Shown here one piece after another: positions 354 to 24,000 of a stretch of 24,000 nucleotides of DNA. The notes under the pieces were generated by a model. It had not been told where the DNA came from. It saw nothing but the letters and a program-made list of their open reading frames with translations, and ran no database searches. The position numbers and the translations under genes were made by a program. This stretch comes from Candidatus Woesearchaeota archaeon (GTDB lineage: Archaea > Nanobdellota > Nanobdellia > Pacearchaeales > UBA284). The stretch lies in assembly GCA_964354405.1 (NCBI GenBank), contig CAYGZP010000003.1:8666-32665 (forward strand), given 5' to 3'. Every line of letters starts with the position of its first letter. Position 1 is the first letter of the stretch.

Positions 354-369
354 TTATCGTTTACGATAA
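354..369. repeat. palindromic box TTATCGTTTACGATAA (copy 1)
   Basis: Perfect 6+6 inverted repeat with a 4-nt spacer. The minus-strand spacer TAAA contains the TAA stop (361-363) of the putative endolysin gene. The next ATG (350) follows 3 nt after the box. Confidence 0.9.
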
Positions 370-903
370 TTCGGTTAATAGATATGGAATTGTCTTTTGG
401 TTGTATCTATTCATTTCCGAATAGACGAGGTTGATGAATCCGTCCCATTGTGAAGGATAGATTGTTTGGCATCCTTCGCTTGAGGTGGATTTGTAACTGC
501 CCTTATGGATGTTGATAGCGATGCCCATATCGTCTCCAGTGCCGTCTCTCGTAACAGGCAACTCCTCTTTGGCGTTAGCAGGTCGCAACGCTGGATAGCC
601 ACCTCCGGGTTTGCTAATGCCATGATTCCCTTTACGAAAGCGATGAACGCCCGTTTTGAGAACCGCAATGCCTTTTCGATATACAGACGGATCAGTGTTG
701 GCGTTGAAAGTAGCATGAACAGAAGGAGATAGTAGTATAATCGCATCGTCGTAAATACCCCTATCATTCTTTCCTTTGACTCCCATTGAGTCAGCATAAT
801 ATCCGCGAATCCCTACCAGCGCAACACGATCTTCGATCCCCGCTTTGATGACCATTGCGAGGGTCTTTTCTTTCGCTTGCTGTGGTCTGGAGTTAGGAAC
901 CAT
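361..903 (-). CDS. putative endolysin / cell-wall hydrolase (180 aa)
   Basis: Last gene of a cassette of small membrane and lipoprotein genes with overlapping stops and starts. The segment INIHKGSYKSTSSEGCQTI resembles the His...Ser-x-Gly-Cys active-site pattern of YkuD / L,D-peptidase-like folds; this is from memory, with no search done. The function is inferred mostly from context. Confidence 0.6.
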   Translation of the reverse strand: MVPNSRPQQAKEKTLAMVIKAGIEDRVALVGIRGYYADSMGVKGKNDRGIYDDAIILLSPSVHATFNANTDPSVYRKGIAVLKTGVHRFRKGNHGISKPGGGYPALRPANAKEELPVTRDGTGDDMGIAINIHKGSYKSTSSEGCQTIYPSQWDGFINLVYSEMNRYNQKTIPYLLTELS

Positions 904-1073
904 TAGCCTTTACGCACAACATTGATGAGTCCAACGAGTCCGAGTCCTGCGACAAGGATTGCTTCTTGGAGTTCTGGTTCGATCTTCACTCCGACTGCCG
1001 TAGCAATAAGAATCAATCCGCGCCATGTGCTATTCTCTGATAGCCGCTGAAGTAGTATATTTACGATTTTCAT
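903..1073 (-). CDS. small membrane protein, 56 aa (holin/antiholin-like), not in the ORF track
   Basis: Hand translation gives MKIVNILLQRLSENSTWRGLILIATAVGVKIEPELQEAILVAGLGLVGLINVVRKG. It has two hydrophobic stretches. Its stop overlaps the endolysin start (TAATG) and its start overlaps the upstream stop (ATGA). Confidence 0.55.
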   Translation of the reverse strand: MKIVNILLQRLSENSTWRGLILIATAVGVKIEPELQEAILVAGLGLVGLINVVRKG

Positions 1074-1228
1074 TTTTTTGTTCCTTTTGGTTCGGGCAGT
1101 TCATAAGTAAGCCTGCCGTAATCTGTATCTAACGAAATTCCAAGTGTTGTGCAGCTTGTCAAGAATGCCATCGCAAGAAATGCGAATGAGATCAGAATCA
1201 TTCCAACTGCGATTTGTTTAGCGTTCAT
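1070..1228 (-). CDS. small lipoprotein, 52 aa (o-spanin-like), not in the ORF track
   Basis: Hand translation gives MNAKQIAVGMILISFAFLAMAFLTSCTTLGISLDTDYGRLTYELPEPKGTKK. It has a positively charged N-terminus, a hydrophobic core and a lipobox-like LTSC. The mature part would be only about 27 aa. It lies inside the lysis cassette. Confidence 0.6.
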   Translation of the reverse strand: MNAKQIAVGMILISFAFLAMAFLTSCTTLGISLDTDYGRLTYELPEPKGTKK

Positions 1229-1400
1229 TGTTGCGAATCTTTTTAAACATATACACTGCCGTCAAAATTCCAGCGATAAGAGAAACAAACAATCCACCGA
1301 GGCGCAATCCAGTTTCAATGTGCGGCATCATGCTTACCATGAATCCAGTAAAACTCGTTGTTGTTCCTAAAACTCCTGTAAGTGTAGCGTTATCGTTCAT
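1218..1400 (-). CDS. holin-like membrane protein (60 aa)
   Basis: Two predicted hydrophobic helices (SFTGFMVSMMPHI and LGGLFVSLIAGILTAVYMF) and a basic C-terminal tail (KKIRNNER). It is the first gene of the lysis cassette and overlaps the lipoprotein gene start by 11 nt. Confidence 0.6.
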   Translation of the reverse strand: MNDNATLTGVLGTTTSFTGFMVSMMPHIETGLRLGGLFVSLIAGILTAVYMFKKIRNNER

Positions 1401-1404
1401 CCGT

Positions 1405-1644
1405 TTATAATGTTATTGGTTCCCACTGTCTTTCAACTCGATCTTCAAACCAAACCACAATAGGCTCCCATTCGCCTTCTTCTGGTTTTTCTATTTTTAC
1501 CACTTCTACAAGACGAGGATCTTCCCATCCATCTGGAAGTGGGTATGGGCGAATCGTATCAATTCGCGGGTTACCTTCATCATCCAGCACTACACTTGCA
1601 AGTTCCCTTATTCCGTTTGGAAATATAAGTCCAAATGTTTTCAT
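1405..1644 (-). CDS. hypothetical protein (79 aa)
   Basis: ORF-track entry, co-oriented, with 3-4 nt gaps to both neighbours. No recognisable motif. Confidence 0.6.
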   Translation of the reverse strand: MKTFGLIFPNGIRELASVVLDDEGNPRIDTIRPYPLPDGWEDPRLVEVVKIEKPEEGEWEPIVVWFEDRVERQWEPITL

Positions 1645-1647
1645 AAA

Positions 1648-3688: not shown

Positions 3689-3955
3689 CTATGGGTAAGT
3701 TATTGTTACTTTTACCAAATTTGTGTCGTTTACTGTTGGAGGCTGAGTAGCATACTCAAGTGTTAGTGTTGCTACTAAGACTCCTGCATTTTTGTATAGA
3801 ACAGTCGCAATATTATTTGTGGCACCATAGTAAGTGATGTCAATCTCGTCATATGGCGGGATGTCGAATCCAGTAACTTGTTTCAATTGCTCATAGATAT
3901 TGAAATTCTGTTGATCTGGAGTTAGATTGATAAAGCAGGGTTGAGAGAGTGCCAT
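3689..3955 (-). CDS. hypothetical structural-module protein (88 aa)
   Basis: ORF-track entry. Its stop lies 1 nt from the tail fibre start, and its ATG lies 6 nt downstream of palindromic box copy 2. Confidence 0.6.
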   Translation of the reverse strand: MALSQPCFINLTPDQQNFNIYEQLKQVTGFDIPPYDEIDITYYGATNNIATVLYKNAGVLVATLTLEYATQPPTVNDTNLVKVTITYP

Positions 3956-3961: not shown

Positions 3962-3977
3962 TTATCGGTTACGATAA
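3962..3977. repeat. palindromic box TTATCGGTTACGATAA (copy 2)
   Basis: Perfect half-sites. The box directly abuts the TAA stop (3978-3980) of the upstream minus-strand gene. Confidence 0.9.
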
Positions 3978-4244
3978 TTAGCCAACTGGTGGAAGAGCAG
4001 CAGCAAGAGCTTCGTTAGTAAGGAAGTATTGCTGGTCTTCAGTTTTTTGCACAAAGCAATTTTGAGTAACTGGGGTGAGGCTACCAATGGTTGCGAGTCC
4101 GAAATAGAATTGATAGAGTTTAGCGGAATCGGAGGCTGAGTCATAGCATCCATAAGAAATTGGGTTAATACCAGCAGCATCAGCAATCGTTTGAAGAAAA
4201 GGATAGGATTTATTGCGGTAGTCGAGATCGGTAAAGCAAGCCAT
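3978..4244 (-). CDS. hypothetical structural-module protein (88 aa)
   Basis: ORF-track entry. I prefer it over the overlapping 3962..4330 ORF, which would overlap the upstream 204-aa gene (4302..4916) by 29 nt. Confidence 0.55.
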   Translation of the reverse strand: MACFTDLDYRNKSYPFLQTIADAAGINPISYGCYDSASDSAKLYQFYFGLATIGSLTPVTQNCFVQKTEDQQYFLTNEALAAALPPVG

Positions 4245-4249
4245 AATTT

Positions 4250-4290
4250 AAAAAAGGGGTTAGGGTGAGGAAGGATTACCTTCCCCACCC
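4250..4290 (-). terminator. GC-rich hairpin plus T-run after the 204-aa gene (candidate leaky intrinsic terminator)
   Basis: The minus strand reads GGGTGGGGAAGG-TAAT-CCTTCCTCACCC, a 12-bp stem with one G-U pair. It is followed by TAACCCCTTTTTT. The T-run is offset by 7 nt, so terminator strength is uncertain. Confidence 0.5.
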
Positions 4291-4301
4291 AAGGTTGAGG
4301 T

Positions 4302-4916
4302 TTAGTAGTAGATGCCAACAACGTAGGCATTCACATAGAGTGCGCCAACACGTCCAGCAGTATCAGCACCAGAGGTGACATTCACGCCAGCGTTTGCGTA
4401 GGTGAAGGTGGTCGAGTCAACGACAGTAACTTCAGCCTGCACATCGTTGAACGTAGTGTCGGTCATGCTGGCAATCGTGATCGTGTCACCCGTGGCAAAA
4501 CCATGAGCAGCACCAGTAACGATTGTGGCAACGCCCGAAGTGCGGGAACGAGTTGCGGTAGCTTGACCAGCACCAACAGTAGATTTCAACAAACGAAGTT
4601 TGCGGGAACCAGTGATAACATAAGGATTGGCGGCAATCGCAAGAGGATTGTAGCGGCCTTGGTTATCAAGAGCGTCAGTGATGGTGAGCGAAGAGGTGAT
4701 GTTTTCGCCAGTGGTTCCGTTGTCAACGATCACAATTGGATCGGTGGCAGTAGTTCCGCGAGCGTAGGCAGTCTCCAGCACGATGCTTGTTGGAAAGAAC
4801 TTAGTGTCTTGGTCGTTAAGAACCAAGAGGTCAGCGTCTCCAGCAGCGAGGAGGTTAACGGCAATCGGGCCAAACAAGTTGACACGATCATAAGCGAGTG
4901 GTCGAGAATTAGACAT
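4302..4916 (-). CDS. virion structural protein (204 aa), function unassigned
   Basis: Immediately downstream of the putative capsid gene with similar strong codon bias. The segment GAAHGFATGDTITIASMTDTTFNDVQAEVTVVDSTTFTY resembles a beta-domain motif seen in phage structural and fibre proteins (from memory). Confidence 0.65.
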   Translation of the reverse strand: MSNSRPLAYDRVNLFGPIAVNLLAAGDADLLVLNDQDTKFFPTSIVLETAYARGTTATDPIVIVDNGTTGENITSSLTITDALDNQGRYNPLAIAANPYVITGSRKLRLLKSTVGAGQATATRSRTSGVATIVTGAAHGFATGDTITIASMTDTTFNDVQAEVTVVDSTTFTYANAGVNVTSGADTAGRVGALYVNAYVVGIYY

Positions 4917-4971: not shown

Positions 4972-6384
4972 TTAGGAAGGCACAACGATGTCACCCACAC
5001 CAGCGCAGCTATAGCAATCCTGATTGTTCTCAGGAACGATGTAGCTTTGCACAGGGCAGCAGGAACCATAGAGGTTTTTGCTTTGTGGCAGGCGATGCAA
5101 GAACGAGTGCATGATGGTTGGGTCTTTGACCTGTGCAGCGAGACGGAACTGGGCTTGATAGAAGCCCGTTTTGCGCCAGCGGTTGCACTCCCAATCTGGG
5201 TTCTTCCATTCCCAATCGCCAGCGTAGTTCTGGGTCATTTGCTGGGCTTGGCCGTATCCGGTCGGGGATGGCATTGTCCATTTAACCATTGCTTTGTTCA
5301 CCATAGCAACCGAGATGCCGAAGTCGGCAGTGCGGTATGCGCGGTTAGGAATATAAGCGCAACCGTTTTCAAGGACAGTCTTGATGTAACGAGGAACGCG
5401 AACGAGACGTGCCCATGTAGCAGGATCAGCTTCATTGAATGTAGCGAGCGATGCGTTGAAGGCGGTGTCAGCGTTGAAGCGAGCGGAGTTGATGTCGTAT
5501 CCGAAGGCATAGTCACCGATGATGCGGTTGATGCCGAGTTTCAAACGAGTAAGACGCTCATCGAAGTCGGTGTTTGCATCCCAGTAACCATTGTTACGCT
5601 TGGCTTGGAAGTAAAGCGCACGGCCAACTTGAGGATCAGGGATAACGATGTCGAGCAATGGCTGACCAGTCGCATCTTGCAGATCAAGGCGGAAAGCGTC
5701 ATCTTCGTCTTGGAGGTCAACGAGAGCGTCGTCGAGCATATCAAGCGAGAGATAAGCAATCTTATTGAGGTCGGCAGGAGCGAGCTTAACGCGAATCGCG
5801 CAGAGGTCGTAGCCAGCTTCGTTGTTGATGGTATGCTCAGGAACGAACCATGCAGAGTCGTCAACGAGTCCGCAGTAAGTGCCGTCATCCGTGGTGATAC
5901 CCATCCATTTGTGGCCGGAACCACCGATGTAGTTGGAACGAAGGAACTCTTCGTGGACGTTCTTGGTGATGCGAGCATTCGACTCCTCGAACTGAAGGAT
6001 TTCTTCAGCAGGGAAGAGGCGATAAAGAAGGCTCTCAACGCAAATCCAGTCAGTCGTCATCTCTTTACGGAGAAGCTCGAAAGTGTAGCTCTCAGTGCCG
6101 GGGCGCTGAATAACTTCAGGTTTGCTATCGCAAGAATCAGTCTCGCAGTAGGTGTCGGTGATCGCACGGAAAGGAGTGCAAGGATCGTGGAAGCCACGGC
6201 CAAAGCGGAATGCTTTCTGTTCGGTTGTATGATTCAAGGGCCATGATTGCTCCTCGAAACGTGTGAAATATGCAGAGTTGGTGACGAGTTTCTTTACATA
6301 GAGGTCGTTGAAATACTCGCGGCCCTCGCGGAAGAAACTATCAATCTCAGCACAGGAATTGAAATATAGCTGATCTGATGCCAT
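4972..6384 (-). CDS. putative major capsid protein (470 aa)
   Basis: Gene order is portal, small ORF, scaffold, then this gene. It shows the strongest codon bias in the window: there are no TTA, CTA or TCA codons across about 400 codons, which is why the codon-aligned antisense frame stays open. It has a long structured leader and is bracketed by hairpins. No sequence motif was recognised. Confidence 0.65.
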   Translation of the reverse strand: MASDQLYFNSCAEIDSFFREGREYFNDLYVKKLVTNSAYFTRFEEQSWPLNHTTEQKAFRFGRGFHDPCTPFRAITDTYCETDSCDSKPEVIQRPGTESYTFELLRKEMTTDWICVESLLYRLFPAEEILQFEESNARITKNVHEEFLRSNYIGGSGHKWMGITTDDGTYCGLVDDSAWFVPEHTINNEAGYDLCAIRVKLAPADLNKIAYLSLDMLDDALVDLQDEDDAFRLDLQDATGQPLLDIVIPDPQVGRALYFQAKRNNGYWDANTDFDERLTRLKLGINRIIGDYAFGYDINSARFNADTAFNASLATFNEADPATWARLVRVPRYIKTVLENGCAYIPNRAYRTADFGISVAMVNKAMVKWTMPSPTGYGQAQQMTQNYAGDWEWKNPDWECNRWRKTGFYQAQFRLAAQVKDPTIMHSFLHRLPQSKNLYGSCCPVQSYIVPENNQDCYSCAGVGDIVVPS

Positions 6385-6583: not shown

Positions 6584-6599
6584 TTATCGTAAACGATAA
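6584..6599. repeat. palindromic box TTATCGTAAACGATAA (copy 3)
   Basis: Perfect half-sites in the capsid gene leader. It lies about 15-30 nt downstream of the predicted TSS and about 200 nt upstream of the ATG. Confidence 0.9.
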
Positions 6600-11418: not shown

Positions 11419-11420
11419 TT

Positions 11421-11436
11421 TTATCGTTTACGATAA
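11421..11436. repeat. palindromic box TTATCGTTTACGATAA (copy 4, identical 16-mer to copy 1)
   Basis: Perfect half-sites. The minus-strand spacer TAAA contains the TAA stop (11428-11430) of the 125-aa gene. The HNH gene ATG (11418) follows 2 nt after the box. Confidence 0.9.
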
Positions 11437-11841: not shown

Positions 11842-13692
11842 ATGTCAAGAGTTTTTTCTTCCAACAAGGGTATTCAGAAATATGGGATGAAGTTCCCAGA
11901 AAACATGGACGAACTTGGAATAGAACTTTATTGCTATGCAATTTCCCGTGGAGAATATGGAAAAGAATACTGCGTTAAGCACAATATTAACCTAACAGAT
12001 TTTAAATTACTCTCTCCATCTGAACATTTCCTTAATGCTGTGAAACTTCAATGGCCGACTGAGGTTTCTATCTACAGTCGAGGATATACGAATACTCAGT
12101 TGGTTAGGACACTGGATGAGTTATGTTCCAATACTGACATCTGTTTAGCAGGCGCGGCTTCGATGGGTAAGTCATTTCCAGTTGCACTTTGGATTTATCT
12201 TGATTGGTGTTCTGCCCCACACTGCACTTCTTCTTGGGTTGCTACAACTACTCTGGGTGCATCTGAAGATCGTATCTGGGGTATCATTTCTAAACTTTGG
12301 AAGTCTGCCAGTGTTCAGTATGGTAAGTTGATCGACTATAGACACATGATTGTTTGGGGAGGCGCATCCAACGACGAAGATAAAGATTATCGTAATGCGA
12401 TAAAAGCTCTCGCTTTTCAGTCTGGTAACGAAGGTCAGAAGGCTATTGATACTACCCGTGGTCGTAAGAATGATCGTGTTCGATTGGCACTTGATGAGTT
12501 GCCCGAAATGGAGTTAGGAGCAATCACTGCTCGCGTTAACCTTTCTGCAAATAACGATATTACATTTATAGGTATCGGAAACCCGTCAGCAGGCGACAAC
12601 CCTCACACTCGTTGGGCAATGCCTAAAGGTCATTCCAACTTCGATTCTGTCAATCCAGACATGATGAAGTGGGATACGGAAACTGGCGTTTGCTTATTCT
12701 ACAACGGCATGAAGTCTCCTAACTTCGCTGCGCCTGCCCATGAACCATCTCCATTTCCGTTTCTGATGGATCGCAAGAAGCAGGAAATAATGCTCAAACA
12801 ATGTTACGGCGATGAAAATGCTATTGACTATGTTCGTAATGCTATCGGTTGGTGGCCGAAAACGGGATTTGCTCAAACTATTCTCACTGCTGATCTCATT
12901 CGTAACGCCGATACGAACGAAGAACCACTTTGGGATTCTGAAGGATTTACTAAGGTAGCAGGATTCGATACCGCATTTACAGTTGGTGGTGATAGATGCG
13001 TTCTGACTATCGCCAAACTTGGGTATGTGCGAGGGACTCGCAATCGTGTTATGTGGCTTGAGAGTCAAAAGGTAATTCAACTATCTGCTAACGCCGCTGC
13101 TGAGTTTGAAATCCAACTGGCTAACGAAGTTGTTGCTTTATGTCGTGCTGCTGGAGTGCAACCATCTAAATTCGGTATGGACGTGTCTGGTGATGGTGGC
13201 CGAGTTGGACAGGCTATTATTCGTGAGTGGCTACGTTTTGATTCCTCTGGAGCCGCAATCGCTCTTATCTCATCTATGGGTAAACCTACTGACCGAATCG
13301 CGGCAGAGGTTGATAAACGCCCGTGTAAGGATGTTTACGATAGGTTGGTATCTGAGTATTACTACTCATGCTATCACGCATTCAAGAGTCGAGTTATTTA
13401 TGGCATTGATCCCGCTTCCGATTTGGCGCGGGAACTTTGCCTTCGCCGATACACGATTAAATCTAAGAAGATCGCCATTGAAACTAAAGATGAGTTGAAG
13501 GGTAGGACTGGTTACTCTCCCGATTTGAGTGACAGCTTGATCTACGCACTCGAAATGGCGCGGCGTAATGGACTCGTATTTATCGGAAACGATAAACCAG
13601 TTCCAACTAACCGATTCTGGGCGCGGGATGAGGTATCAATTGATACCACTCAAGACGATGACTACGGATCAGACGATAACGGAGATTGGTAA
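11842..13692 (+). CDS. terL: terminase large subunit (616 aa from the ATG at 11842)
   Basis: Walker A-like LAGAASMGKS. Walker B-like RVRLALDELPE. RNaseH-like nuclease motifs GFDTAFTVGGDRCV and SPDLSDSLIYALEMA near the C-terminus. The track ORF begins at 11674, but that extension overlaps the divergent 125-aa gene, so I chose the internal ATG at 11842 (MSRVFSS...). Confidence 0.85.
   Translation: MSRVFSSNKGIQKYGMKFPENMDELGIELYCYAISRGEYGKEYCVKHNINLTDFKLLSPSEHFLNAVKLQWPTEVSIYSRGYTNTQLVRTLDELCSNTDICLAGAASMGKSFPVALWIYLDWCSAPHCTSSWVATTTLGASEDRIWGIISKLWKSASVQYGKLIDYRHMIVWGGASNDEDKDYRNAIKALAFQSGNEGQKAIDTTRGRKNDRVRLALDELPEMELGAITARVNLSANNDITFIGIGNPSAGDNPHTRWAMPKGHSNFDSVNPDMMKWDTETGVCLFYNGMKSPNFAAPAHEPSPFPFLMDRKKQEIMLKQCYGDENAIDYVRNAIGWWPKTGFAQTILTADLIRNADTNEEPLWDSEGFTKVAGFDTAFTVGGDRCVLTIAKLGYVRGTRNRVMWLESQKVIQLSANAAAEFEIQLANEVVALCRAAGVQPSKFGMDVSGDGGRVGQAIIREWLRFDSSGAAIALISSMGKPTDRIAAEVDKRPCKDVYDRLVSEYYYSCYHAFKSRVIYGIDPASDLARELCLRRYTIKSKKIAIETKDELKGRTGYSPDLSDSLIYALEMARRNGLVFIGNDKPVPTNRFWARDEVSIDTTQDDDYGSDDNGDW
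13580..13595. repeat. palindromic box TTATCGGAAACGATAA (copy 5, inside terL)
   Basis: Perfect half-sites. It encodes FIGNDK about 100 nt before the terL stop. The 16-mer is identical to copy 8 in the helicase gene but is read in a different frame. Confidence 0.9.
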
Positions 13693-15149: not shown

Positions 15150-15328
15150 TTGTAGTAGTCTGTTAGCTGTTGAAGTCCGAGCGTGGCCAATTCCAGTTCT
15201 TCGTAAATTTCTCTGACTGACTCTGGGAAGGGTTTGCCTCGCTGGTGCATGGTGGTTGGACTGCCTGCTGAGTATGGACTGACTCTGAGGTAGTATTTAC
15301 CTTCTTGGATTTCGAGGAAGACGTGCAT
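15104..15328 (-). CDS. hypothetical protein (74 aa); overlaps both neighbours
   Basis: ORF-track entry with globular-looking sequence (VREIYEELELATLGLQQLTDYY). It overlaps the 3' 166 nt of the HTH ORF and the 5' 46 nt of the nuclease ORF. No SD is visible, so its coding status is uncertain. Confidence 0.35.
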   Translation of the reverse strand: MHVFLEIQEGKYYLRVSPYSAGSPTTMHQRGKPFPESVREIYEELELATLGLQQLTDYYKCSVEKKVSKKRVAS

Positions 15329-15576
15329 AATGCGATTACTTTTTCAACCTGTTCTTTTTTAAGAATGCTCTTGGAGTTTACTTCGATCTGATTGATCAAT
15401 GATCCAGTCACGCCGATCTTGTCTCCAAGTTCTCTGACAGTCAACTTCAGTGTTCTGCGTGTCTCACGAAGTTGGTTAGCAAAAGTCTTTCGTCCAAGAG
15501 AACGAACTGTGCGTGATTGCTCGTAGGCACTCATGCAAGTTTCATAGGCATCTTCTAATGGATGTTTCATTTCCAT
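15163..15576 (-). CDS. XRE-family helix-turn-helix transcriptional regulator (137 aa as drawn)
   Basis: LKLTVRELGDKIGVTGSLINQIEVNSKS matches the HTH_3 pattern (helix, turn, then the S...I..IE recognition helix). It is divergent from the rightward early arm. The last ~55 residues are low-complexity (SSSKSKK..QSQSEK) and overlap another ORF, so the true C-terminus is uncertain. The real start may be the second Met, at 15570. Confidence 0.7.
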   Translation of the reverse strand: MEMKHPLEDAYETCMSAYEQSRTVRSLGRKTFANQLRETRRTLKLTVRELGDKIGVTGSLINQIEVNSKSILKKEQVEKVIALCTSSSKSKKVNTTSESVHTQQAVQPPCTSEANPSQSQSEKFTKNWNWPRSDFNS

Positions 15577-15578: not shown

Positions 15579-15607
15579 AAAATAAACCAAGAGTATTGAC
15601 AAGTCAA
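15579..15607 (-). promoter_or_regulatory. leftward sigma70-like promoter (TTGACT-17-TATTTT)
   Basis: On the minus strand the -35 TTGACT is at 15607-15602, the spacer is 17 nt, and the -10 TATTTT is at 15584-15579. The predicted TSS near 15572 is 1-2 nt before the second Met codon (15570) of the HTH gene, implying a near-leaderless mRNA. Confidence 0.5.
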
Positions 15608-15624
15608 CACTTTTTTGATACTAT
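15596..15624 (+). promoter_or_regulatory. rightward sigma70-like promoter (TTGACA-17-TACTAT)
   Basis: The -35 TTGACA is at 15596-15601, the spacer is exactly 17 nt, and the -10 TACTAT is at 15619-15624. The predicted TSS near 15631 is 2 nt before the ATG at 15633. Confidence 0.55.
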
Positions 15625-15632: not shown

Positions 15633-16001
15633 ATGGATAACACTAACAACATCAAAGATAAAGCAGAAAAAATACTCGCTGAAACAAGGAAAACTGTCAT
15701 GGTTACGAATATGGCTTTAGCCACCGCTATGAATACTTCTTTCATGGCTACCTACGAAAACGATGACGGCATTCTTGTCATGGCACTCAAGCCTAACAAC
15801 ACTGCTATTCTCGCAGCTACGGGAAACAACAGTAACTCTATAATCAAATCAGACATCATCATTACAAAGGATGGTATCGGTGAACGCCGCTCCACCTTTC
15901 AATGCGAGACAGAAGAAGATGCCAGTCAAATCTGGGACTTACTCAATGATAGAATGTTTGAGTGGTCGAAGGGTGAAGTTGAACAAGTAGAAATCGGCTA
16001 A
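15633..16001 (+). CDS. hypothetical early protein (122 aa), first rightward gene
   Basis: ORF-track entry trimmed to the first ATG (MDNTNNIKDKAEK...). Its stop TAA directly abuts palindromic box copy 6. Confidence 0.6.
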   Translation: MDNTNNIKDKAEKILAETRKTVMVTNMALATAMNTSFMATYENDDGILVMALKPNNTAILAATGNNSNSIIKSDIIITKDGIGERRSTFQCETEEDASQIWDLLNDRMFEWSKGEVEQVEIG

Positions 16002-16017
16002 TTATCGGAACCGATAA
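16002..16017. repeat. palindromic box TTATCGGAACCGATAA (copy 6)
   Basis: Perfect half-sites. The box begins on the nucleotide after the TAA stop at 15999-16001. Confidence 0.9.
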
Positions 16018-16094
16018 TCTGGACTATAATGTAGGACACTTTTTCAAATGTGATTGCATTTGTTCCATTTTTTCTATGAATGGAAAAAAGATGC

Positions 16095-16276: not shown

Positions 16277-16549
16277 ATGATTATTAAACGTAATACATTC
16301 ACATTGGTAGAAACACGTCACTTAGATAACATCAAATTATCTGTATCCGGAATTGGTTTATTAACTCACATCACAAGATGGACAGAAGATAACCTTAATA
16401 TAGAGCAGATATTAGATCGCATATACGACATGAGTCACCATGATCCAAGTGCAGCAATCGGATACTTGGAACTTTTGAAAGAAGAAATCATTGAGAATTT
16501 TTTTTCTGAACAAGAATTACAATCAATTCAAGCCTTAGCTGAAGTATGA
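16277..16549 (+). CDS. hypothetical protein (90 aa from the ATG at 16277)
   Basis: ORF-track frame starting at 16205 (a GTG). I chose the internal ATG (MIIKRNTFTLVETRH...). Its stop overlaps the next start (ATGA at 16546). Confidence 0.5.
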   Translation: MIIKRNTFTLVETRHLDNIKLSVSGIGLLTHITRWTEDNLNIEQILDRIYDMSHHDPSAAIGYLELLKEEIIENFFSEQELQSIQALAEV

Positions 16550-17520
16550 AACCGAAAAAACTTGGAAGACTTATTTTAAAGGAAGAGTTGTTCGCTATCA
16601 CTGGATGCTTGGAGGAAGCGATAATCCTAAACCAAATGTGTTATTGGTCGGAAAGAATGAATGAAACAGATAAGTTTTTGGAGGAAGAATACACAATGCT
16701 GGTCGAACACGTCCCTGTATTATCCCACGGATGGATATACAAGTCCGCATCTGAACTGGCTGGTGAAATGTTTGGAGCCGTGAGTGAGAAAACAATGAAT
16801 CGAATATTGGATCGGTTGGTAAAAAAGAATTTTCTTCGTCGCAGATTCAATCCTAATCCGAAGTATAAGTTTGATAAAACATATCACTATCGCGTGAACT
16901 TTGTTGAAATCATGTGCCATTTAAAAAATAAAAAGATGCCATTGAGTGGTTATCATATTATTGAGGAGTTTGTAAACAGACTTGAACAAGGTGTCGCTCC
17001 GAAGCGTCATTTTGACGGATCGGAGAATCATTCTGACGGAGCAATACCAGAGACTATAACAAAAACTACTGACAAAGAAAAACCCCTAACCCCTTTGCAA
17101 GGGGAAGAGGAAAGTTCGGCAATGGCCTCACATTCCTCGGAAGTAGTAACTCAACCAAATCTATTCTCGACTAACCCAAGTGAAGCTAACGCTTCGGGTT
17201 CGGCTATCGCCAAACTGAACTCTGCCGATGGCAATGGAACTACCCCCCCAATTCCGCTCGCCCCCCCACGAACTATCCCGACCGAATTGGATACTCCAGA
17301 ATTCAACGCTGCTTGGAATGAATTCCTTCAACACCGAAAGGAAAAGAAATCTCCAATGACACCAACCGCAAAAAATAATATGTTCCGCAAGTTCACAACT
17401 TGGGGAGTAGAGAACGCAGTCGTTGCAATCGACGCTGCAATCTCAAACGGGTGGACTGGAGTTTTCGAACCAAAACAAAACAAGTCCAATTCAAAACCAG
17501 AACGACTTTGCAGCATTTGA
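16546..17520 (+). CDS. putative replication initiator / replisome-organiser-like protein (324 aa)
   Basis: The N-terminal region (EEAIILNQMCYWSE...GWIYKSASELAGEMFGAVSEKTMNRILDRLVKKNFL) looks like a winged-helix DNA-binding domain. The C-terminal TPEFNAAWNEFLQHRKEKKSPMTPTAKNNMFRKFTTWGVENAVVAIDAAISNGWTGVF resembles the conserved C-terminal module of phage replication proteins (from memory). It lies upstream of the helicase. Confidence 0.55.
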   Translation: MKPKKLGRLILKEELFAITGCLEEAIILNQMCYWSERMNETDKFLEEEYTMLVEHVPVLSHGWIYKSASELAGEMFGAVSEKTMNRILDRLVKKNFLRRRFNPNPKYKFDKTYHYRVNFVEIMCHLKNKKMPLSGYHIIEEFVNRLEQGVAPKRHFDGSENHSDGAIPETITKTTDKEKPLTPLQGEEESSAMASHSSEVVTQPNLFSTNPSEANASGSAIAKLNSADGNGTTPPIPLAPPRTIPTELDTPEFNAAWNEFLQHRKEKKSPMTPTAKNNMFRKFTTWGVENAVVAIDAAISNGWTGVFEPKQNKSNSKPERLCSI

Positions 17521-17536
17521 TTATCGTTACCGATAA
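17521..17536. repeat. palindromic box TTATCGTTACCGATAA (copy 7)
   Basis: Perfect half-sites. The box begins on the nucleotide after the TGA stop at 17518-17520 and lies 25 nt upstream of the methyltransferase ATG. Confidence 0.9.
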
Positions 17537-17561: not shown

Positions 17562-18314
17562 ATGAATGAGCTACACTTATTTGCTGGAGCAGGGGGAGGA
17601 ATCCTCGGCGGGATGCTTCTCGGACATACCACAGTCTGTGCTGTCGAACTTGAACCTTACTGCCGAAAAGTCCTACTCCAAAGACAACGAGACGGAATCC
17701 TGCCTAAGTTCCCAATCTGGGATGATGTCACAACTTTCGACGGAACTCCGTGGAGAGGAAAAGTCGATGTCGTTTGCGGAGGATTCCCTTGCCCGGATTT
17801 CTCCAATGGAAATCAAAAGGAAAGTAGATTCACAGGACTACAAGGAAACAGGGGAGGACTATGGTTTGAAATGTTTAGGATTATATGCGAAATACGACCC
17901 AAGCTCGTCTTCGTGGAAAATGTGCCAAACCTCATTAAATTTGGGATTGGAACAGTCCTCGGAAATTTGGTCGAAAGCGGGTATAATTCAAGATGGTGTT
18001 TGTTGGGAAGCAAGGATTGCGAAGGAGTTCATAAAAGAGATAGAGCATGGATTCTCGCTACTCACCCCAACATCGACAGACTACAAGAGAAACAACCTAT
18101 CGACTCCAATGTGGGAAAGAAGAATGAAACAAAGGAAGTCTCCGGGGACACTACCAGAGCAATTGGCTTGGATGGGATTCAAGGGTATGTTAGCCCCCAC
18201 ATTGCCGGAAAAAATGATGAGATGGCCAATTGGCTGGACAGGTTTAAAGCAGTTGGAAATGGGCAGGATGCAAGCGTGGCTGCAACAGCATGGAGAATAC
18301 TTGGAGGAGAATAA
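17562..18314 (+). CDS. DNA (cytosine-5) methyltransferase, compact (250 aa)
   Basis: Motif I LFAGAGGG. Motif IV GGFPCPDFS with the catalytic Cys. Motif VI ENVPNL. Motif VIII-like GVHKRDRAWILA. Motif X-like RFKAVGNGQ. All are in the canonical order. Confidence 0.85.
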   Translation: MNELHLFAGAGGGILGGMLLGHTTVCAVELEPYCRKVLLQRQRDGILPKFPIWDDVTTFDGTPWRGKVDVVCGGFPCPDFSNGNQKESRFTGLQGNRGGLWFEMFRIICEIRPKLVFVENVPNLIKFGIGTVLGNLVESGYNSRWCLLGSKDCEGVHKRDRAWILATHPNIDRLQEKQPIDSNVGKKNETKEVSGDTTRAIGLDGIQGYVSPHIAGKNDEMANWLDRFKAVGNGQDASVAATAWRILGGE

Positions 18315-18318
18315 ATGA
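17566..18318 (+). other. second complete 250-codon ORF in the +1 frame of the methyltransferase gene (candidate overlapping gene)
   Basis: The ORF track shows an uninterrupted 250-aa translation, MSYTYLLEQGEESSAGCFSDIP...MMRWPIGWTGLKQLEMGRMQAWLQQHGEYLEENK. Its ATG is 4 nt after the MTase ATG, and its TGA is 4 nt after the MTase TAA and overlaps the helicase ATG. Coding status is unproven. Confidence 0.35.
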
Positions 18319-19547
18319 AAAAAGTCCCAATAGCACGAAAGAGTGAAGCCGCAGCATTGTCGCTGATAGCAATCGACAGAAACATACTTTCCCAACAAAC
18401 ATGGGATAGTGGTTATTTCGCCATAAACGCCAACAGGCTCGTTTTTGAAGCTCTCCAAGGGGTTCACCAGCGGACAGGCGTTTGTTGCCCGTTCTCTGCC
18501 ATCGCAGAGTTGGAAGCTACAGGAAAGTTGGATGCGGCGGGTGGTGAAGAATCTGTCCACGACACATTACGCACGATGAACGTAGCTTCGGGTAAGGTTT
18601 GCCAAGACATGGCTGACGATTATCGGAAGCACCTGCACCGCACAAAATCATACCGCGATGTCATTACACTTTTCGAGAAGGAAGAACCAAACCTACGGAC
18701 AGGTAAGACAAATCTGAAGGAATTATCGGAAACGATAATGAACTCTGCCGAAGATCGGACGACAAAAGTAAAACCAGTCAAAGACCTCATCATCGAAATC
18801 ATTGATGAGATGGAAGGTAAAGCTGTAAAGGAATTCTTTCCTACTGGATTACTCAAAGTAGATCGTGCGCTCAAGGGTGGAATGCACAAAGGAGAGATGA
18901 TGACAGTAGCTTCAGAGACTGGTGGTGGTAAATCCATCTACCTCGTCCAAGCGGCACTCGCTAACCTGCAAGATGGAAAGTCAGTTCTCTTCTTCAGCCT
19001 CGAAATGAAAGCGAAGGACATCCTAACTCGTATGGCTTGTAACTTGGCAGGCTACCCCGTGCGTGAACCAGAGGATTACAAGAACGCAAACCAACACGAA
19101 CTCCTAAAAATCAACTCTGCATTGTTGCAATTACACAAGTTACCCATCGAAATCGTGGATGGAGTAGCCGAAATTGACGAGATTGAGGCCCAAATCAACC
19201 GATATGTAGGAGAAAATCGGGCAGATGTAATCGTCGTAGATTACCTACAAATCATCTCATCTGACGGGGAAGAAGGCAGAGAAAGTCAGATTTCGGAGAT
19301 TGCAAGGAGGCTAAAACTCGCAGCACTGAAGAATAACTCGATTATGCTGACTGCTTCACAACTAAACGACGAGGGAAGACTACGCGAATCACGGGCAATT
19401 GGAATGCACTCTGACCAAGTAGTGTATATCGAACACATCAAGGAGAAGAGTAGGCTGACAATCAAGAAGAACCGCCGTGGTGCGAGGAACTACATGACAG
19501 AAATCGTCATGCGTGGTGACATCTCAAAACTTGAGGAGGTTTACTAA
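18315..19547 (+). CDS. dnaB: DnaB-family replicative DNA helicase (410 aa)
   Basis: The N-terminal SEAAALSLIAIDRNIL matches the DnaB N-domain opening. Walker A ASETGGGKS. FFSLEM. Walker B DVIVVDYLQI. LTASQLNDEGR matches the SQLnR motif. Confidence 0.9.
   Translation: MKKVPIARKSEAAALSLIAIDRNILSQQTWDSGYFAINANRLVFEALQGVHQRTGVCCPFSAIAELEATGKLDAAGGEESVHDTLRTMNVASGKVCQDMADDYRKHLHRTKSYRDVITLFEKEEPNLRTGKTNLKELSETIMNSAEDRTTKVKPVKDLIIEIIDEMEGKAVKEFFPTGLLKVDRALKGGMHKGEMMTVASETGGGKSIYLVQAALANLQDGKSVLFFSLEMKAKDILTRMACNLAGYPVREPEDYKNANQHELLKINSALLQLHKLPIEIVDGVAEIDEIEAQINRYVGENRADVIVVDYLQIISSDGEEGRESQISEIARRLKLAALKNNSIMLTASQLNDEGRLRESRAIGMHSDQVVYIEHIKEKSRLTIKKNRRGARNYMTEIVMRGDISKLEEVY
18723..18738. repeat. 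palindromic box TTATCGGAAACGATAA (copy 8, inside dnaB)
   Basis: Perfect half-sites. It encodes LSETI(M). The 16-mer is identical to copy 5 in terL but is read in a different frame. Confidence 0.9.
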
Positions 19548-22309: not shown

Positions 22310-22310
22310 T

Positions 22311-22457
22311 ATGAAAACAGGACTTTACGCTAATATCAACGCCAAACGGAAACGCATCGCAGCGGGTAGCGGTGAGAAGATGAGGAAGGTTGGTAGCAAA
22401 GGCGCACCAACTGCAAAGGCATTTAAACAATCAGCAAAAACTGCGAAGAAAAAGTAG
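22311..22457 (+). CDS. small lysine-rich protein (48 aa from the ATG at 22311)
   Basis: MKTGLYANINAKRKRIAAGSGEKMRKVGSKGAPTAKAFKQSAKTAKKK. The start codon lies 1 nt after the upstream stop. The track ORF (22188) overlaps the previous gene, so the internal ATG is preferred. Confidence 0.5.
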   Translation: MKTGLYANINAKRKRIAAGSGEKMRKVGSKGAPTAKAFKQSAKTAKKK

Positions 22458-22495
22458 TTATAACAAGTTTAGTGAGTTTACAAAAAACTTATAAT

Positions 22496-22720
22496 ATGGA
22501 AAAGAGATTTACGAAAGTAGTCAAGAATGCCAAAACTGGTAGGACTAAGACAGTCAAGTATGGTCAGAAAGGTGCGACAATCTCTCCGGGATCAAAGCGT
22601 GGCGATTCCTACTGCGCCCGTTCAGCTAAGATCAAAGGTGATTGGAAATCCGATCCCAACTCCCCAAACAACCTTTCGCGCAAGAAGTGGCGTTGCAAAG
22701 GTAGCAAGTCAATGAAATGA
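22496..22720 (+). CDS. small basic protein (74 aa from the ATG at 22496)
   Basis: KTVKYGQKGATISPGSKRGDSYCARSAKIKGDWKSDPNSPNNLSRKKW resembles a small conserved phage/viral family (G..g..i.pg...gdSYCARS) that I recall as a DUF. The start could be the GTG at 22472 or the ATG at 22496. Confidence 0.55.
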   Translation: MEKRFTKVVKNAKTGRTKTVKYGQKGATISPGSKRGDSYCARSAKIKGDWKSDPNSPNNLSRKKWRCKGSKSMK

Positions 22721-22878
22721 AAATTAACGGAAAAAATGCTGAGAGCAATGTTGATCTGAATGATGGTCGAGTAGGATGGAAATATCCACTCAACTCCAAA
22801 CAGATCAGCAAGCCTGCGAAGACTTCTTCAAGAAGCGTGGAATGAAACAATACGATTGCGCTGGCAGACCTAAGAAAA

Positions 22879-23133
22879 ATGACGTGTCCAAAATGTGAAT
22901 CACCTACCGAAGTCATCAATAGTAGAAAGAGAGATGGCACAGTAGTAAGGAGGAGGCTTTGTGCCTGTGGAGAAAGGTTTTCAACCAAAGAAGTAATTAC
23001 TGATTCAAGGAAAGTTACTTTCAAAAAGATAGTTAAAGCACTATCCACGACTAAAGCAGTCACTGGAGAGTGGACAGTAAAAGTAGATAAAAATACCCCC
23101 GATTGGGCAAGGAAAATGCTAATTAACCTATGA
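22879..23133 (+). CDS. NrdR-like zinc-ribbon protein without ATP-cone (84 aa)
   Basis: MTCPKCESPTEVINSRKRDGTVVRRRLCACGERFSTKEV parallels the NrdR N-terminus (M.CP.C.....V.DSR.......RRRR.C..C..RFTT.E). No ATP-cone domain follows. Confidence 0.65.
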   Translation: MTCPKCESPTEVINSRKRDGTVVRRRLCACGERFSTKEVITDSRKVTFKKIVKALSTTKAVTGEWTVKVDKNTPDWARKMLINL

Positions 23134-24000
23134 GTATCGTTAACGATAAATTCAGATTTCATGTTCTTTCGTTACCACATACCGTAACCAGCAAAGAATT
23201 TAATGCCTGCGCTTACACGCAAAAGGTAGTTAAGTTTTGCAAGATGATGACTGAACGTGGACACACAGTAATCCACTACGGTCATGAAGACTCAGATGTA
23301 ATCTGCACAGAACACGTCACAGTTCTTACCAACCATGACTTCAAAAAAAGCTATGGGACACATGACTGGAGGAAGACATTCTTTAAGTTCGATACTAACG
23401 ACCATGCGTATCAAAATTTTTACGCAAACGCCATAAGGGAAATTGAAGATAGAAAAGAAAAGAATGACTTCATCCTACCATTCTGGGGATCAGGAGTCAG
23501 ACCGATCTGTGACGCGCATCCTGACTTAATCTGCGTAGAGCCGGGCATAGGCTATGCGGGAGGTCACTGGGCAAGATGGAAAGTATGGGAATCCTACGCA
23601 ATCTATCACGCTTATTGTGGACTGAAGAATGTAGGGAACTGTAACCAAGACTGGTATGATGTCGTTATCCCAAATTACTTCGATATAGAAGACTTTGAAT
23701 ATAGGACAGACAAAGAAGATTACTTCTTATACCTTGGCCGAGTATATAGCGGAAAAGGTGTAGATATTGCTATACAGGCTACAGAGCGCGCAGGGGTGAA
23801 GTTGGTCATAGCAGGACAAAAAGAGGAAGGTTACAAGTTACCAGACCATGTTGAGTATGTAGGATATGCAGACGTTTCCACAAGAAGGAAGCTCATGTCA
23901 GGTGCAAAAGCCAGTTTCCTTCCATCTATGTATGTAGAACCATTCGGCGGGGTGCAGATAGAAAACCTACTTTCTGGCACTCCTACTATAACAACAGACT
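23130..24000 (+). CDS. glycosyltransferase, GT-B fold / GT4-like (partial, 290 codons, runs off the right edge)
   Basis: Hand translation gives MSIVNDKFRFHVLSLPHTVTSKEFNACAYTQKVVKFCKMMTERGHTVIHYG...YFLYLGRVYSGKGVDIAIQATERAGVKLVIAGQ...SFLPSMYVEPFGGVQIENLLSGTPTITTD. The E-x7-E region (EPFGGVQIE) and the GRxxxxKG segment are typical of retaining GT-B enzymes. It is absent from the ORF track because there is no stop inside the window. It has an ATGA overlap with the upstream gene. Confidence 0.75.
   Translation, partial: MSIVNDKFRFHVLSLPHTVTSKEFNACAYTQKVVKFCKMMTERGHTVIHYGHEDSDVICTEHVTVLTNHDFKKSYGTHDWRKTFFKFDTNDHAYQNFYANAIREIEDRKEKNDFILPFWGSGVRPICDAHPDLICVEPGIGYAGGHWARWKVWESYAIYHAYCGLKNVGNCNQDWYDVVIPNYFDIEDFEYRTDKEDYFLYLGRVYSGKGVDIAIQATERAGVKLVIAGQKEEGYKLPDHVEYVGYADVSTRRKLMSGAKASFLPSMYVEPFGGVQIENLLSGTPTITTD
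23134..23149. repeat. palindromic box, imperfect: GTATCGTTAACGATAA (copy 9)
   Basis: 11 of the 12 half-site positions are conserved; the first T is a G. It lies at codons 2-7 of the glycosyltransferase gene, immediately after the NrdR-like gene stop. Confidence 0.7.

Follow-up and report, generated by a model that had tools for sequence, protein, structure and literature searches.

The box and its setting in the window

The window, the whole 24,000-nt stretch of phage DNA analysed here, encodes among other proteins TerL, DnaB, an XRE-family helix-turn-helix (HTH) protein (15163..15576, minus strand) and an 84-aa NrdR-like zinc-ribbon protein without an ATP-cone (22879..23133, plus strand), and is punctuated by eight perfect copies and one single-mismatch copy of the palindromic box TTATCG-N4-CGATAA. 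The original prediction had placed the perfect copies at 354, 3962, 6584, 11421, 13580, 16002, 17521 and 18723 and the imperfect one at 23134, and all these coordinates and sequences are correct. Its description of a strongly selected element also holds, with 9 matches observed against 0.03 expected, the latter being the mean over 100 dinucleotide-preserving shuffles, none of which (0/100) reached 9 matches.

Seven of the nine boxes lie at gene junctions or in intergenic DNA. Box TTATCGTTTACGATAA (354..369) occupies a junction of minus-strand genes, with the stop codon of 361..903 inside its spacer and the ATG of 126..350 located 3 nt past it. At a second such junction, the outer TAA of box TTATCGGTTACGATAA (3962..3977) is itself the stop codon of 3962..4330, and the ATG of 3689..3955 is 6 nt away. 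Box 6584..6599 is found in the 346-nt region upstream of a gene for a 470-aa protein (4972..6384, minus strand), downstream of both a strong terminator (6702-6672) and a conserved TTGACA-17-CAATGT (6650-6622). Relative to this putative promoter, the box spans about +16 to +31; across the family alignment, its arms do not vary and its spacer reads TTTA, TAAA or GAAA. Box 11421..11436 follows the first gene (11428..11805, 125 aa) of a leftward operon; a promoter-like site (11848-11821) lies 386 nt upstream of this box, and the ATG of an HNH gene follows it after 2 nt. Relatives lack this HNH gene, and sister lineage L302 keeps the box at the same position.

On the rightward side, box 16002..16017 comes directly after the stop codon of the first early gene (15633..16001). 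The promoter at 15596-15624 lies about 380 nt upstream of this box, and a conserved TTGACA (16096) follows downstream. Box 17521..17536 likewise abuts the stop codon of 16546..17520, which encodes a wHTH, initiator-like protein, and the ATG of a C5 methyltransferase gene lies 25 nt past it. The one-mismatch copy GTATCGTTAACGATAA (23134..23149), with its core intact, had been assigned to the 3' end of the NrdR-like gene; it does adjoin the stop codon of that gene (23131-23133) but lies after it, at the junction with the next ORF, where it covers codons 2-7 of a glycosyltransferase-like sequence starting at 23130. The two intragenic boxes, 13580..13595 in TerL (97 nt before the stop codon) and 18723..18738 in DnaB (codons 137-142), are, as originally described, identical 16-mers read in different frames (FIGNDK versus LSETIM). 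A TTATCG-N5-CGATAA sequence inside TerL (12387..12403) is a possible spacing variant of uncertain status.

Boxes are found just upstream or downstream of sigma-70-like promoters, after the first genes of operons and beside terminators. Most are clear of recognisable promoter elements, and conserved -35/-10 sequences do not occur at any fixed distance from them. The overlapping divergent sigma-70-like promoters at 15579..15624 (TTGACA-17-TACTAT rightward; TTGACT-17-TATTTT leftward, towards the XRE gene) contain no box in this window, nor does the 56-bp divergent promoter region of the XRE gene as a whole.

Distribution and sequence rules of the box

The scan of related phages proposed in the original prediction yielded 1,394 core copies and 845 perfect 16-mers in 234 related loci (3.38 Mb), against 0 copies in 73 loci of other phages (0.85 Mb). 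Bacterial genomes show the 16-mer only as single, scattered matches. The box is restricted to this family of uncultured freshwater phages, every genome of which carries it at a density of 15-31 per ~50 kb.

The selected core consensus is D-T-TATCG-KWWM-CGATA-A-H, in which the degenerate positions mirror each other. TATCG-N4-CGATA forms an invariant core, and the outermost T/A is preferred but dispensable, with 275 of the 341 one-mismatch variants falling on this outermost base. The N4 spacing is strict across the family (1,313 copies versus at most 49 for any other spacing), N5-spaced copies being about 4% as frequent as N4 copies. The spacer had been described as variable, and several spacers do occur, but they are not free: they follow the rule K-W-W-M, with position 1 always G/T and position 4 always A/C (250/250 distinct contexts and 31/31 sites of one genome) and a centre of AA/TT or TA, AT being almost never present. 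The flanks are constrained as predicted, although less strictly than the proposed A/T consensus, the rule being that C never occurs on the 5' side and G never on the 3' side.

In a complete relative, whose genome is ~90% coding, 19 of the 31 boxes are at junctions or intergenic. Boxes are enriched at gene junctions. They are also more evenly spaced than random (CV 0.45-0.75 vs ~0.93; P = 0.0006-0.08), which could partly mirror the spacing of gene boundaries; extra copies are kept inside long genes, so that no box-free stretch exceeds about 6 kb.

Such placement could be taken to reflect recombination, with the boxes acting as short shared homologies or boundaries for module exchange; alternatively, a mobile element or homing endonuclease could have left them as relics or use them as targets. 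Several breakpoints of homology between the window and its relatives fall at boxes (376, 3950, 11419-11420 and 16017), the HNH gene is inserted beside box 11421, and genes for an exonuclease and a Holliday-junction resolvase are present in the phage. However, ~17% of junctions have a box and ~17% of breakpoints (by hand count) lie near one, which is the gene-boundary expectation. Moreover, intragenic boxes in conserved genes are kept without mosaicism, conservation stops at 18 bp with no terminal repeats or target duplications, and the K-W-W-M rule would be left unexplained, making this origin highly unlikely.

Selection acts on the DNA

The intragenic copies permit a separation of nucleotide from protein constraint. 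The DnaB box coincides with a 17-nt invariant run in 30 sequences, 90% of whose third codon positions vary. In TerL, 50 variants differ within the box at the spacer alone (GGA/GGT, AAC/ACC) and never depart from KWWM, while the flanking codons vary, and the Gly codon is only GGA or GGT. This invariance at synonymous sites in both genes holds in relatives down to 68% identity, bearing out the predicted nucleotide-level selection: selection on the box acts on DNA.

Several features could nonetheless suit an RNA hairpin, UUAUCG-loop-CGAUAA, serving as a processing site, a protein-dependent terminator or antiterminator (nut/boxB-like), or a translational operator overlapping ribosome-binding regions. 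Many boxes overlap stop codons and lie 2-6 nt ahead of the next ATG, the position of a ribosome-binding site; GAAA and GTAA loops are common; and a G-U pair can lengthen the stem of three copies from relatives. We nevertheless regard a hairpin as quite improbable. The restricted positions mirror each other across the dyad, the spacer being K..M, its centre accepting AA=TT while avoiding AT, and the flanks being not-C/not-G. Changes in the arms are uncompensated, the two bases being complementary in only 8/83 two-mismatch variants hit at mirror positions; the commonest two-mismatch form is CTATCG..CGATAT. Positions 7 and 10 of the box pair no more often than expected, and genuine RNA stems covary in an alignment in which the box does not. 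The folds are also weak (-3 to -6.7 kcal/mol, vs -24.3 for the genuine terminator at 6702-6672), some boxes come after a strong terminator and ahead of the next promoter, in DNA that should yield little RNA, and Rfam contains no match for the box. The symmetric degenerate positions and uncompensated arm changes thus point, as the original prediction had proposed, to the binding site of a dimeric protein.

Candidate binding proteins

The XRE protein is predicted to have a long N-terminal helix, an HTH formed by helices 47-54 and 58-67, and a tail that is disordered and variable. Its recognition helix is GVTGSLINQIE; the pattern GVTGSL(I/V)NQ(I/V)E does not change among 49 variants or in homologues down to ~40% identity, and every examined context with this helix also carries boxes. 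A change at a residue likely to contact bases (N62S) occurs in one lineage only, which has 0 boxes in 6.6 kb; for this single-lineage counter-case, the chance of finding no box is roughly 0.02-0.15. At the sequence level, box and predicted recognition helix are co-conserved, although all family-specific genes co-occur with boxes, so that this pattern by itself would fit other proteins of the family as well. The AF2 model of the XRE protein, in which pLDDT exceeds 95 over residues 10-80, superposes on complexes of P22 c2 with its operator (3jxb and 2r1j among the P22 c2-type fold matches), SinR, HipB and C-proteins. A box about 105 nt upstream of the XRE gene is present only in some sister contigs. 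Of the two binders originally nominated, this protein appears the most likely, the candidacy being favoured by the invariant helix, the co-occurrence with boxes and the fold resembling operator-bound P22 c2, SinR and HipB.

The other nominee, the NrdR-like protein, would bind the boxes as a cone-less NrdR retargeted to phage sites, and we consider this unlikely. It matches Pfam Zn_ribbon_NrdR at 1.3e-9 and solved NrdR structures at about 0.015, is present in all sub-lineages of the phage family and has a box adjoining the stop codon of its gene; NrdR boxes, too, are 16-bp palindromes. Against this, its ribbon hairpin varies by sub-lineage (VINSRK, VIDSRK, VVNSRK, VCDSRE, IYNTRK; 40-50% identity) while the box is invariant, homologues also occur in L298 and L299, phages without boxes, and an ATP-cone is absent from the protein. 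The phage box is unlike the NrdR-box consensus and without the paired arrangement typical of NrdR.

A proposed dispersed operator network

We assign a probability of roughly 55% to the reading in which a symmetric dimer of a sequence-specific protein from the phage itself, most likely the XRE protein, recognises the boxes as operators in double-stranded DNA, with global transcription control or insulation as the likeliest role. What binds the box and what binding does are inferred. Each half-site would be (T)TATCG-K, the two lying one helical turn apart, and a presumably uncontacted centre limited to A/T steps would fit indirect (shape) readout. The presence of 15-31 sites per ~50 kb genome suggests a protein acting genome-wide, and the boxes would then form a network of operators or roadblocks spread over the genome, akin to stoperators except in being palindromic. 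One possibility is that they act as roadblocks against read-through from early promoters; the copy at the promoter of the gene for the 470-aa protein, probably the capsid protein, could be a repressor site, and repression might be relieved as replication multiplies the sites. We found no integrase in the phage and detected no ParB-like protein in its family. The phage looks virulent, and a genome-wide silencer would thus be without the usual lysogeny rationale.

Alternatively, the phage might exploit a host transcription factor or nucleoid protein at the boxes, which we consider improbable. A half-site with its flank, CGATAA(A/T)(A/T), resembles the high-affinity nucleation motif of H-NS, TCGATAAATT (PMC2094087). 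The sigma-70-type promoters imply that the phage depends on host RNA polymerase, and a host binder would also account for the invariance of the box across diverged phages. However, T never precedes CGATAA in the boxes but does occupy that position in the H-NS motif; neither the strict dyad nor the N4 spacing suits H-NS; phages would not be expected to conserve the nucleation sites of a silencer; and the 16-mer shows no clustering among 120 bacterial matches.

Comparison with known systems

Among regulatory systems with comparable sites, NrdR boxes share with the phage boxes a 16-bp palindromic form, and an NrdR-type zinc-ribbon protein is encoded in the window, but the phage boxes are unrelated to the NrdR-box consensus and are not paired upstream of nrd genes, and the cone-less phage protein varies where the box does not. 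In phiC31, the CIRs are reportedly c repressor sites, palindromes of ~17 bp present in many highly conserved intergenic copies throughout the genome. However, phiC31 is a temperate actinophage with a repressor of a different family and CIRs beside phage-specific early promoters, and intragenic, evenly spaced copies, both seen here, are not described for it.

Plasmid RK2 has 12 OB sites. OB is a 13-bp palindrome, TTTAGCGGCTAAA, dispersed over a replicon of ~60 kb and used by a single global regulator, KorB, at variable distances from promoters (PMC11790492). KorB, however, is a ParB-family CTPase sliding clamp, a type of protein not detected in this phage family.

The architecture of the boxes resembles that of the operators of Cro/CI-type, XRE-family repressors such as P22 c2 and 434, which are dyads of 14-18 bp whose half-sites are also one helical turn apart. 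In these classical operators, the central bases are uncontacted yet restricted in sequence, with an A/T preference. As in those systems, the XRE gene is transcribed divergently from the early operon. Cro/CI-type operators, however, number 3-6 and cluster on early promoters, whereas the boxes extend genome-wide, including coding sequence, and the XRE promoter of this window is without one.

In their genome-wide deployment, the boxes recall the stoperators of Cluster A mycobacteriophages (L5 gp71-type immunity repressor), more than 20 copies of a short motif over a ~50 kb genome, mostly in short intergenic gaps of long operons but also at promoters, to which a small HTH protein of the phage binds, with the proposed effect of halting RNA polymerase during elongation (PMC9283540). 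A stoperator, however, is an asymmetric 13-mer that binds a two-domain monomer and functions in only one orientation relative to transcription, whereas the boxes are perfect dyads of dimer-type architecture, many of them intragenic. In the present phages, moreover, we found no lysogeny functions, and the XRE protein that is the candidate binder is of another kind. The density of sites, 15-31 per genome in this phage family, is nevertheless similar.

Anatomy of the box

A pattern search of the window recovered exactly the nine sites of the original prediction, namely, eight perfect copies of the 16-bp palindrome TTATCG-N4-CGATAA (hereafter, the box, with copies named by their start position in the window) and one copy at 23134 that reads GTATCG…CGATAA; dinucleotide-preserving shuffles gave an expectation of 0.03 copies. 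Relaxing the search to the core TATCG-N4-CGATA produced no copies in the window beyond these nine. As predicted, the intragenic copies are one identical 16-mer, translated as FIGNDK in the large terminase (TerL) and as LSETIM in DnaB. TerL additionally contains TTATCGTAATGCGATAA (window 12387-12403, encoding DYRNAIK), in which both hexamers are perfect and the spacer is 5 nt long (TTATCG-N5-CGATAA). Such N5 copies are infrequent but recurring in the family of related phages described below, and are commoner in the sub-lineages represented by loci L165, L289 and L301.

To define the box, we analyzed two separate sets, one of 250 distinct sequence contexts and the other of the 31 independent sites in a single genome, and each yielded the consensus D-T-TATCG-K-W-W-M-CGATA-A-H (IUPAC codes). 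In both, the first spacer position is G or T only and the fourth A or C only, the central spacer dinucleotide is AA, TT or TA and almost never AT, and C never occurs immediately to the left of the 16-mer, nor G immediately to its right. These mirror-image rules for spacer and flanks are characteristic of a symmetric dimer that reads the DNA as a double strand. Spacing is strict, with 1,313 N4 copies vs at most 49 for any other spacer length from N0 to N12, and most one-mismatch variants (275 of 341) lose the outermost T or A. A host factor could also bind the boxes, given that a half-site together with its flank resembles the H-NS motif TCGATAAATT (PMC2094087); in the boxes, however, T was never seen at the preceding position, and dyad symmetry is strict. 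Conservation stops at 18 bp, beyond which the flanks are unrelated; with no larger conserved unit, a miniature mobile element of the MITE or REP type is disfavoured.

A family of uncultured freshwater phages carries the box

We identified 234 box-positive loci (3.38 Mb, overlapping) that together contain 1,394 TATCG-N4-CGATA cores, including 845 perfect 16-mers. The box, which had been predicted to be a strongly selected element, is family-wide among the relatives of the window, but is represented by 0 copies in 73 other phage loci (0.85 Mb, GC 31-61%) that had been recruited through a tail-fibre domain in common or through a distant exonuclease, and which also lack any other repeated palindrome. 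In bacterial genomes, a search with one fully specified 16-mer returned scattered single matches in unrelated taxa, along with two short phage fragments in MAGs. These two fragments belong to the family, one having been placed in a MAG of Chthoniobacter and the other in a MAG of Cellvibrio; the two assignments conflict, and both fragments are probably mis-binned. The box-free loci L082, L088 and L298-300 are devoid of any repeated palindrome and share too few family genes to be informative. A literature search on the box hexamers returned primer-type noise only.

Neither the DNA of the window nor its TerL matched any of 50,697 GenBank phage records, and TerL had no relative, and no prophage copy, in 185,579 species genomes. 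Hundreds of IMG/VR and metagenome contigs were recovered with DnaB and further proteins from the window and from related contigs, and complete relatives were rebuilt from overlapping loci. The terminal overlap of 3.9 kb in one of these, IMGVR_UViG_3300036978_000157, indicates a circular or permuted genome of ~54.2 kb. The encoded proteins include DnaB, a helicase, an exonuclease, an Hjc-like resolvase, a C5 methyltransferase, a dCMP deaminase, a glycosyltransferase and several homing-type nucleases, whereas no integrase, partition gene, ParB, DNA polymerase or RNA polymerase domain was detected by Pfam and PHROG searches. The family looks virulent. Among the structural genes of one relative (L245, 1741-9579) is an ORF of 2,612 aa with three boxes inside; it had no Pfam or PHROG match, and its product could be either an internal virion protein of giant size or an enzyme that is injected.

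Several other features of these genomes were noted in passing. The window carries two HNH endonuclease genes (10744-11418 and 13855-14346), both probably free-standing homing endonucleases; the former is not found in close relatives, where 54 nt take the place of 724 nt, and the insertion adjoins box 11421. A GIY-YIG gene and a TerL with an intein were seen among relatives (L161, L302), and the early region of L302, which represents a sister lineage, contains a gene (4974-5576) whose 200-aa product includes an RNA polymerase alpha C-terminal domain (RNA_pol_A_CTD). Window 19738-21817 is occupied by a run of seven small genes with ATGA-type overlaps; their products are paralogous, with the common motif (K)LERERDEAREA(L) and, frequently, the ending E(T/A)TK. 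At window 17562-18318, two 250-codon ORFs (17562..18314 and 17566..18318) overlap almost completely in different frames; the product of the first is a C5 cytosine methyltransferase of compact build, in which the target-recognition region is very short, and most relatives lack this gene or have another in its place.

Selection acts on the DNA of the box

Across 30 DnaB genes with amino acid identity down to 68%, in which 90% of third codon positions vary, the DnaB box is a 17-nt invariant run. In 50 TerL variants, changes in the box are confined to the spacer, where Gly is encoded by GGA or GGT but in no case by GGC or GGG, and the one non-synonymous change, AAC to ACC, still obeys the K-W-W-M rule of the spacer. 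In DnaB, TerL and the gene for the putative giant virion protein, strong selection on the box takes precedence over synonymous codon choice, and codon-level invariance of this kind can flag DNA signals concealed within phage genes. DnaB contains a second invariant run, of 20 nt (CTCCAAGGGGTTCACCAGCG, window 18453-18472), which does not correspond to a box and has stayed the same across 30 relatives despite variation at 90% of third codon positions; its reverse strand includes the Chi-like GCTGGTGA.

Alternatively, the boxes could work as RNA. Folded as RNA, box hairpins reach -3 to -6.7 kcal/mol, compared with -24.3 kcal/mol for a genuine 12-bp terminator of the phage (6702-6672), located upstream of the leader of the gene for a 470-aa protein (4972..6384, minus strand). 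With such weak folding and no T tract, the box was rejected as a Rho-independent terminator, which would need a stable, G+C-rich stem and a U tract after it. A structured hairpin, such as a nut/boxB-like element or a processing site, is likewise disfavoured by the mirror-symmetric constraints and the lack of compensatory changes: two-mismatch variants at mirror positions are complementary in only 8 of 83 cases, the commonest two-mismatch form is CTATCG…CGATAT, and positions 7 and 10 pair no more frequently than expected by chance. The alignment upstream of the 470-aa gene includes genuine RNA elements for comparison. There, the terminator stem is kept while its loop is free, and the leader covaries, with CAGCC/GGCTG becoming CAGTC/GACTG and CAACC/GGTTG, but the box shows only invariance and a K-W-W-M spacer. 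In a complete relative, two boxes lie directly 3' of terminators and ahead of the next promoter, a position where little transcript would be expected over them. Rfam searches gave no family matches, and no tRNAs were found in the window. Invariance at synonymous sites, symmetric degeneracy and uncompensated arms support the earlier view of the box as a site for a DNA-binding protein, selected at the nucleotide level.

The XRE protein is the best candidate binder

Two candidate binders encoded in the window had been proposed, a helix-turn-helix protein of the XRE type (15163-15576, minus strand) and an NrdR-like zinc ribbon protein (22879-23133, plus strand). Invariance of the recognition helix and co-occurrence with the box favour the former, whereas the variable hairpin of the latter speaks against it. 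The XRE recognition helix, GVTGSL(I/V)NQ(I/V)E, is invariant across 49 variants from the family and remains so in homologues with identity as low as ~40%, while the C-terminal tail is hypervariable. Wherever the surroundings of an XRE homologue with this helix were examined, boxes were present, as in L302 (10 in 19 kb), L303 (5 in 11.6 kb), L306, L307, L430, L432 and L434; the XRE gene of L303-L305 has a box ~105 nt upstream. The only lineage substituted at a probable base-contacting position, N62S (P0124), which has the helicase and the XRE protein in common with the family, contains no box in 6.6 kb, even with one mismatch allowed; two viral scans and a metagenome scan yielded nothing beyond these 6.6 kb, and no alternative motif was found.

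The AlphaFold2 model of the XRE protein (pLDDT >95 at residues 10-80) comprises a 38-residue N-terminal helix, the helix-turn-helix, a fourth helix and a disordered tail, and superimposes on operator-bound P22 c2, SinR, HipB and controller proteins of restriction-modification systems (~1.5 Å, 54 residues). Judging from the co-conservation of helix and box and from the predicted fold, the XRE protein is the best candidate binder of the boxes, ahead of the NrdR-like protein. The latter could nonetheless be the binder: its zinc ribbon is genuine (Pfam, 1.3e-9; solved NrdR structures, about 0.015) and is found in all sub-lineages. Only the ribbon domain (residues 1-38) of this 84-aa protein matches, however, and its putative DNA-contact hairpin varies (VINSRK, VIDSRK, VVNSRK, VCDSRE, IYNTRK) among proteins with 40-50% identity, while the box is invariant; homologues also occur in box-free phages. 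Apart from these two proteins, the only DNA-binding types that Pfam and PHROG recognized among the ~70 proteins of a complete relative were HNH, GIY-YIG and Hjc-type nucleases, DnaB, the helicase and the methyltransferase. A winged helix-turn-helix, initiator-like protein of 324 aa was discarded as a binder, being variable or absent among relatives.

Boxes are placed at gene junctions and near transcription signals

Seven of the nine boxes in the window are at gene junctions, although intergenic DNA makes up only ~7-10% of the sequence. A stop codon directly precedes the box, sits in its spacer or is formed by its terminal TAA, and the next ATG frequently follows 2-6 nt beyond. Genomes contain 15-31 boxes; in a complete relative with 31, 19 are junctional or intergenic and 12 intragenic, three of the latter in the 2,612-aa gene. 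Spacing in each of the four rebuilt genomes is more even than random (CV 0.45-0.75 vs ~0.93; P 0.0006 to 0.08), with a longest box-free gap of ~5.9 kb. The boxes could also promote recombination, but, in a hand count, mosaic breakpoints coincided with boxes no more frequently than gene boundaries did.

Promoters of these phages are of the sigma-70 type, and the terminators are ordinary. In a recurring layout, a promoter is followed by one gene of ~125 aa and then by a box, as in the window with the promoter at 11848, the gene 11428..11805 and box 11421, and with the promoter at 15596, the gene 15633..16001 and box 16002. Upstream of the 470-aa gene, which probably encodes the capsid protein, the order is terminator, conserved TTGACA-17-CAATGT, a box (6584) at about +16 to +31, and a structured leader. 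This conserved leader of ~170 nt (window ~6385-6575, minus strand) forms several stems with compensatory changes, has no Rfam match and may be a riboregulator or attenuator. One relative has a perfect TTGACA-17-TATACT promoter with two boxes (one imperfect) in the leader and another box before the promoter. Boxes 6584 and 16002 in the window, and 19645, 19868 and 28816 in relatives, are near promoter-like elements, whereas the XRE gene's own promoter in the window has no box. The box itself was rejected as a promoter, with no -35 or -10 element conserved at a fixed distance from 31 oriented sites, and 'GATAAT' promoter matches proved to be merely the box half-site.

Other signals in these regions include facing divergent promoters at 15579-15624, the -35 elements of which form the palindrome TTGACAAGTCAA; only 8 nt separate the end of the rightward one from the ATG at 15633, and its mRNA would accordingly be nearly leaderless. 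Box 16002 is followed by a 255-nt non-coding stretch (window 16020-16276) with a conserved promoter-like TTGACA at 16096 and a CTTCGG...CCGAAG hairpin at about 16145-16168, which may encode a small RNA; one relative is missing the first 70 nt of this stretch, so that the box adjoins the TTGACA. In the relative L161 (~11790-13940), a second repeated signal, aaCACGAAACaaaATG, lies directly upstream of several middle-region start codons, often 20-80 nt downstream of a box, and may be a shared translation-initiation cassette.

A putative operator network in an apparently virulent phage

The safest statement that these sequence comparisons allow is that the boxes would constitute a genome-wide operator network of a phage-encoded dimeric regulator. 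We infer that, in this uncharacterised phage family, they function as a dispersed operator- or stoperator-like network, and the layout points to control or insulation of transcription by the host RNA polymerase: boxes come after the first genes of operons, in promoter-proximal leaders and beside terminators, and are evenly spread, with extra copies within long genes. A more specific proposal, to which we assign a probability of only about one in five, is that an apparently virulent phage without lysogeny employs a stoperator-like network in which the XRE dimer, of very small size, occupies 15-31 operators. These would be invariant and evenly spaced, with some embedded in essential coding sequence, and would serve either as roadblocks to elongation or insulators, or else to sense copy number. 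In this last, speculative version, multiplication of the sites by replication would dilute an early burst of repressor, freeing the promoter of the 470-aa gene, and this titration would time the switch to late (capsid) expression.

The putative palindromic, dimer-type network is useful in several respects: it is kept throughout a family of freshwater phages, large, abundant and uncultured, in which nothing points to lysogeny; it is under strong selection; and its sites are laid out more evenly than by chance. The 18-bp box and the DNA-binding domain of ~90 aa might serve as a probe of transcription timing or insulation in lytic phages that use host RNA polymerase alone, and the XRE-box pair as a compact, orthogonal repressor-operator pair.

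Comparison with known systems

NrdR boxes are 16-bp palindromes of a set consensus, usually paired upstream of nrd genes, and are recognized by a regulator composed of a zinc ribbon and an ATP-cone. The boxes described here differ from that consensus and are single and dispersed with no nrd genes nearby, and the 84-aa protein lacks a match to the ATP-cone. ParB/parS and KorB/OB systems need a ParB-family CTPase, and no ParB-like domain was detected among the ~70 proteins searched against Pfam and PHROG. In architecture, the boxes resemble operators of the XRE/Cro/CI type (14-18 bp, half-sites one helical turn apart), with which they share the dyad, the strict N4 spacing and the symmetric degeneracy, as well as a candidate cognate helix-turn-helix protein encoded by the same element and conserved with the sites. 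The genome-wide layout, however, is unlike a clustered Cro/CI switch.

To our knowledge, examples of dispersed operator networks are limited to a small number of plasmids and temperate phages, such as the L5-type stoperators, the phiC31 CIRs and KorB sites of RK2, all of which enforce silencing of a resident element. Like the stoperators of Cluster A mycobacteriophages (>20 copies in short intergenic gaps), the boxes are dispersed and mostly located at junctions, but the protein that binds stoperators, and is proposed to block transcription elongation when bound, is the immunity repressor of a temperate phage, whereas the box phages have no lysogeny genes. The sites themselves differ as well. 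The L5-type stoperator is an asymmetric 13-bp site, bound by a monomer, with its orientation tied to the direction of transcription (PMC9283540). The boxes, in contrast, are perfect palindromes with a dimer-type architecture, and many of them are intragenic.
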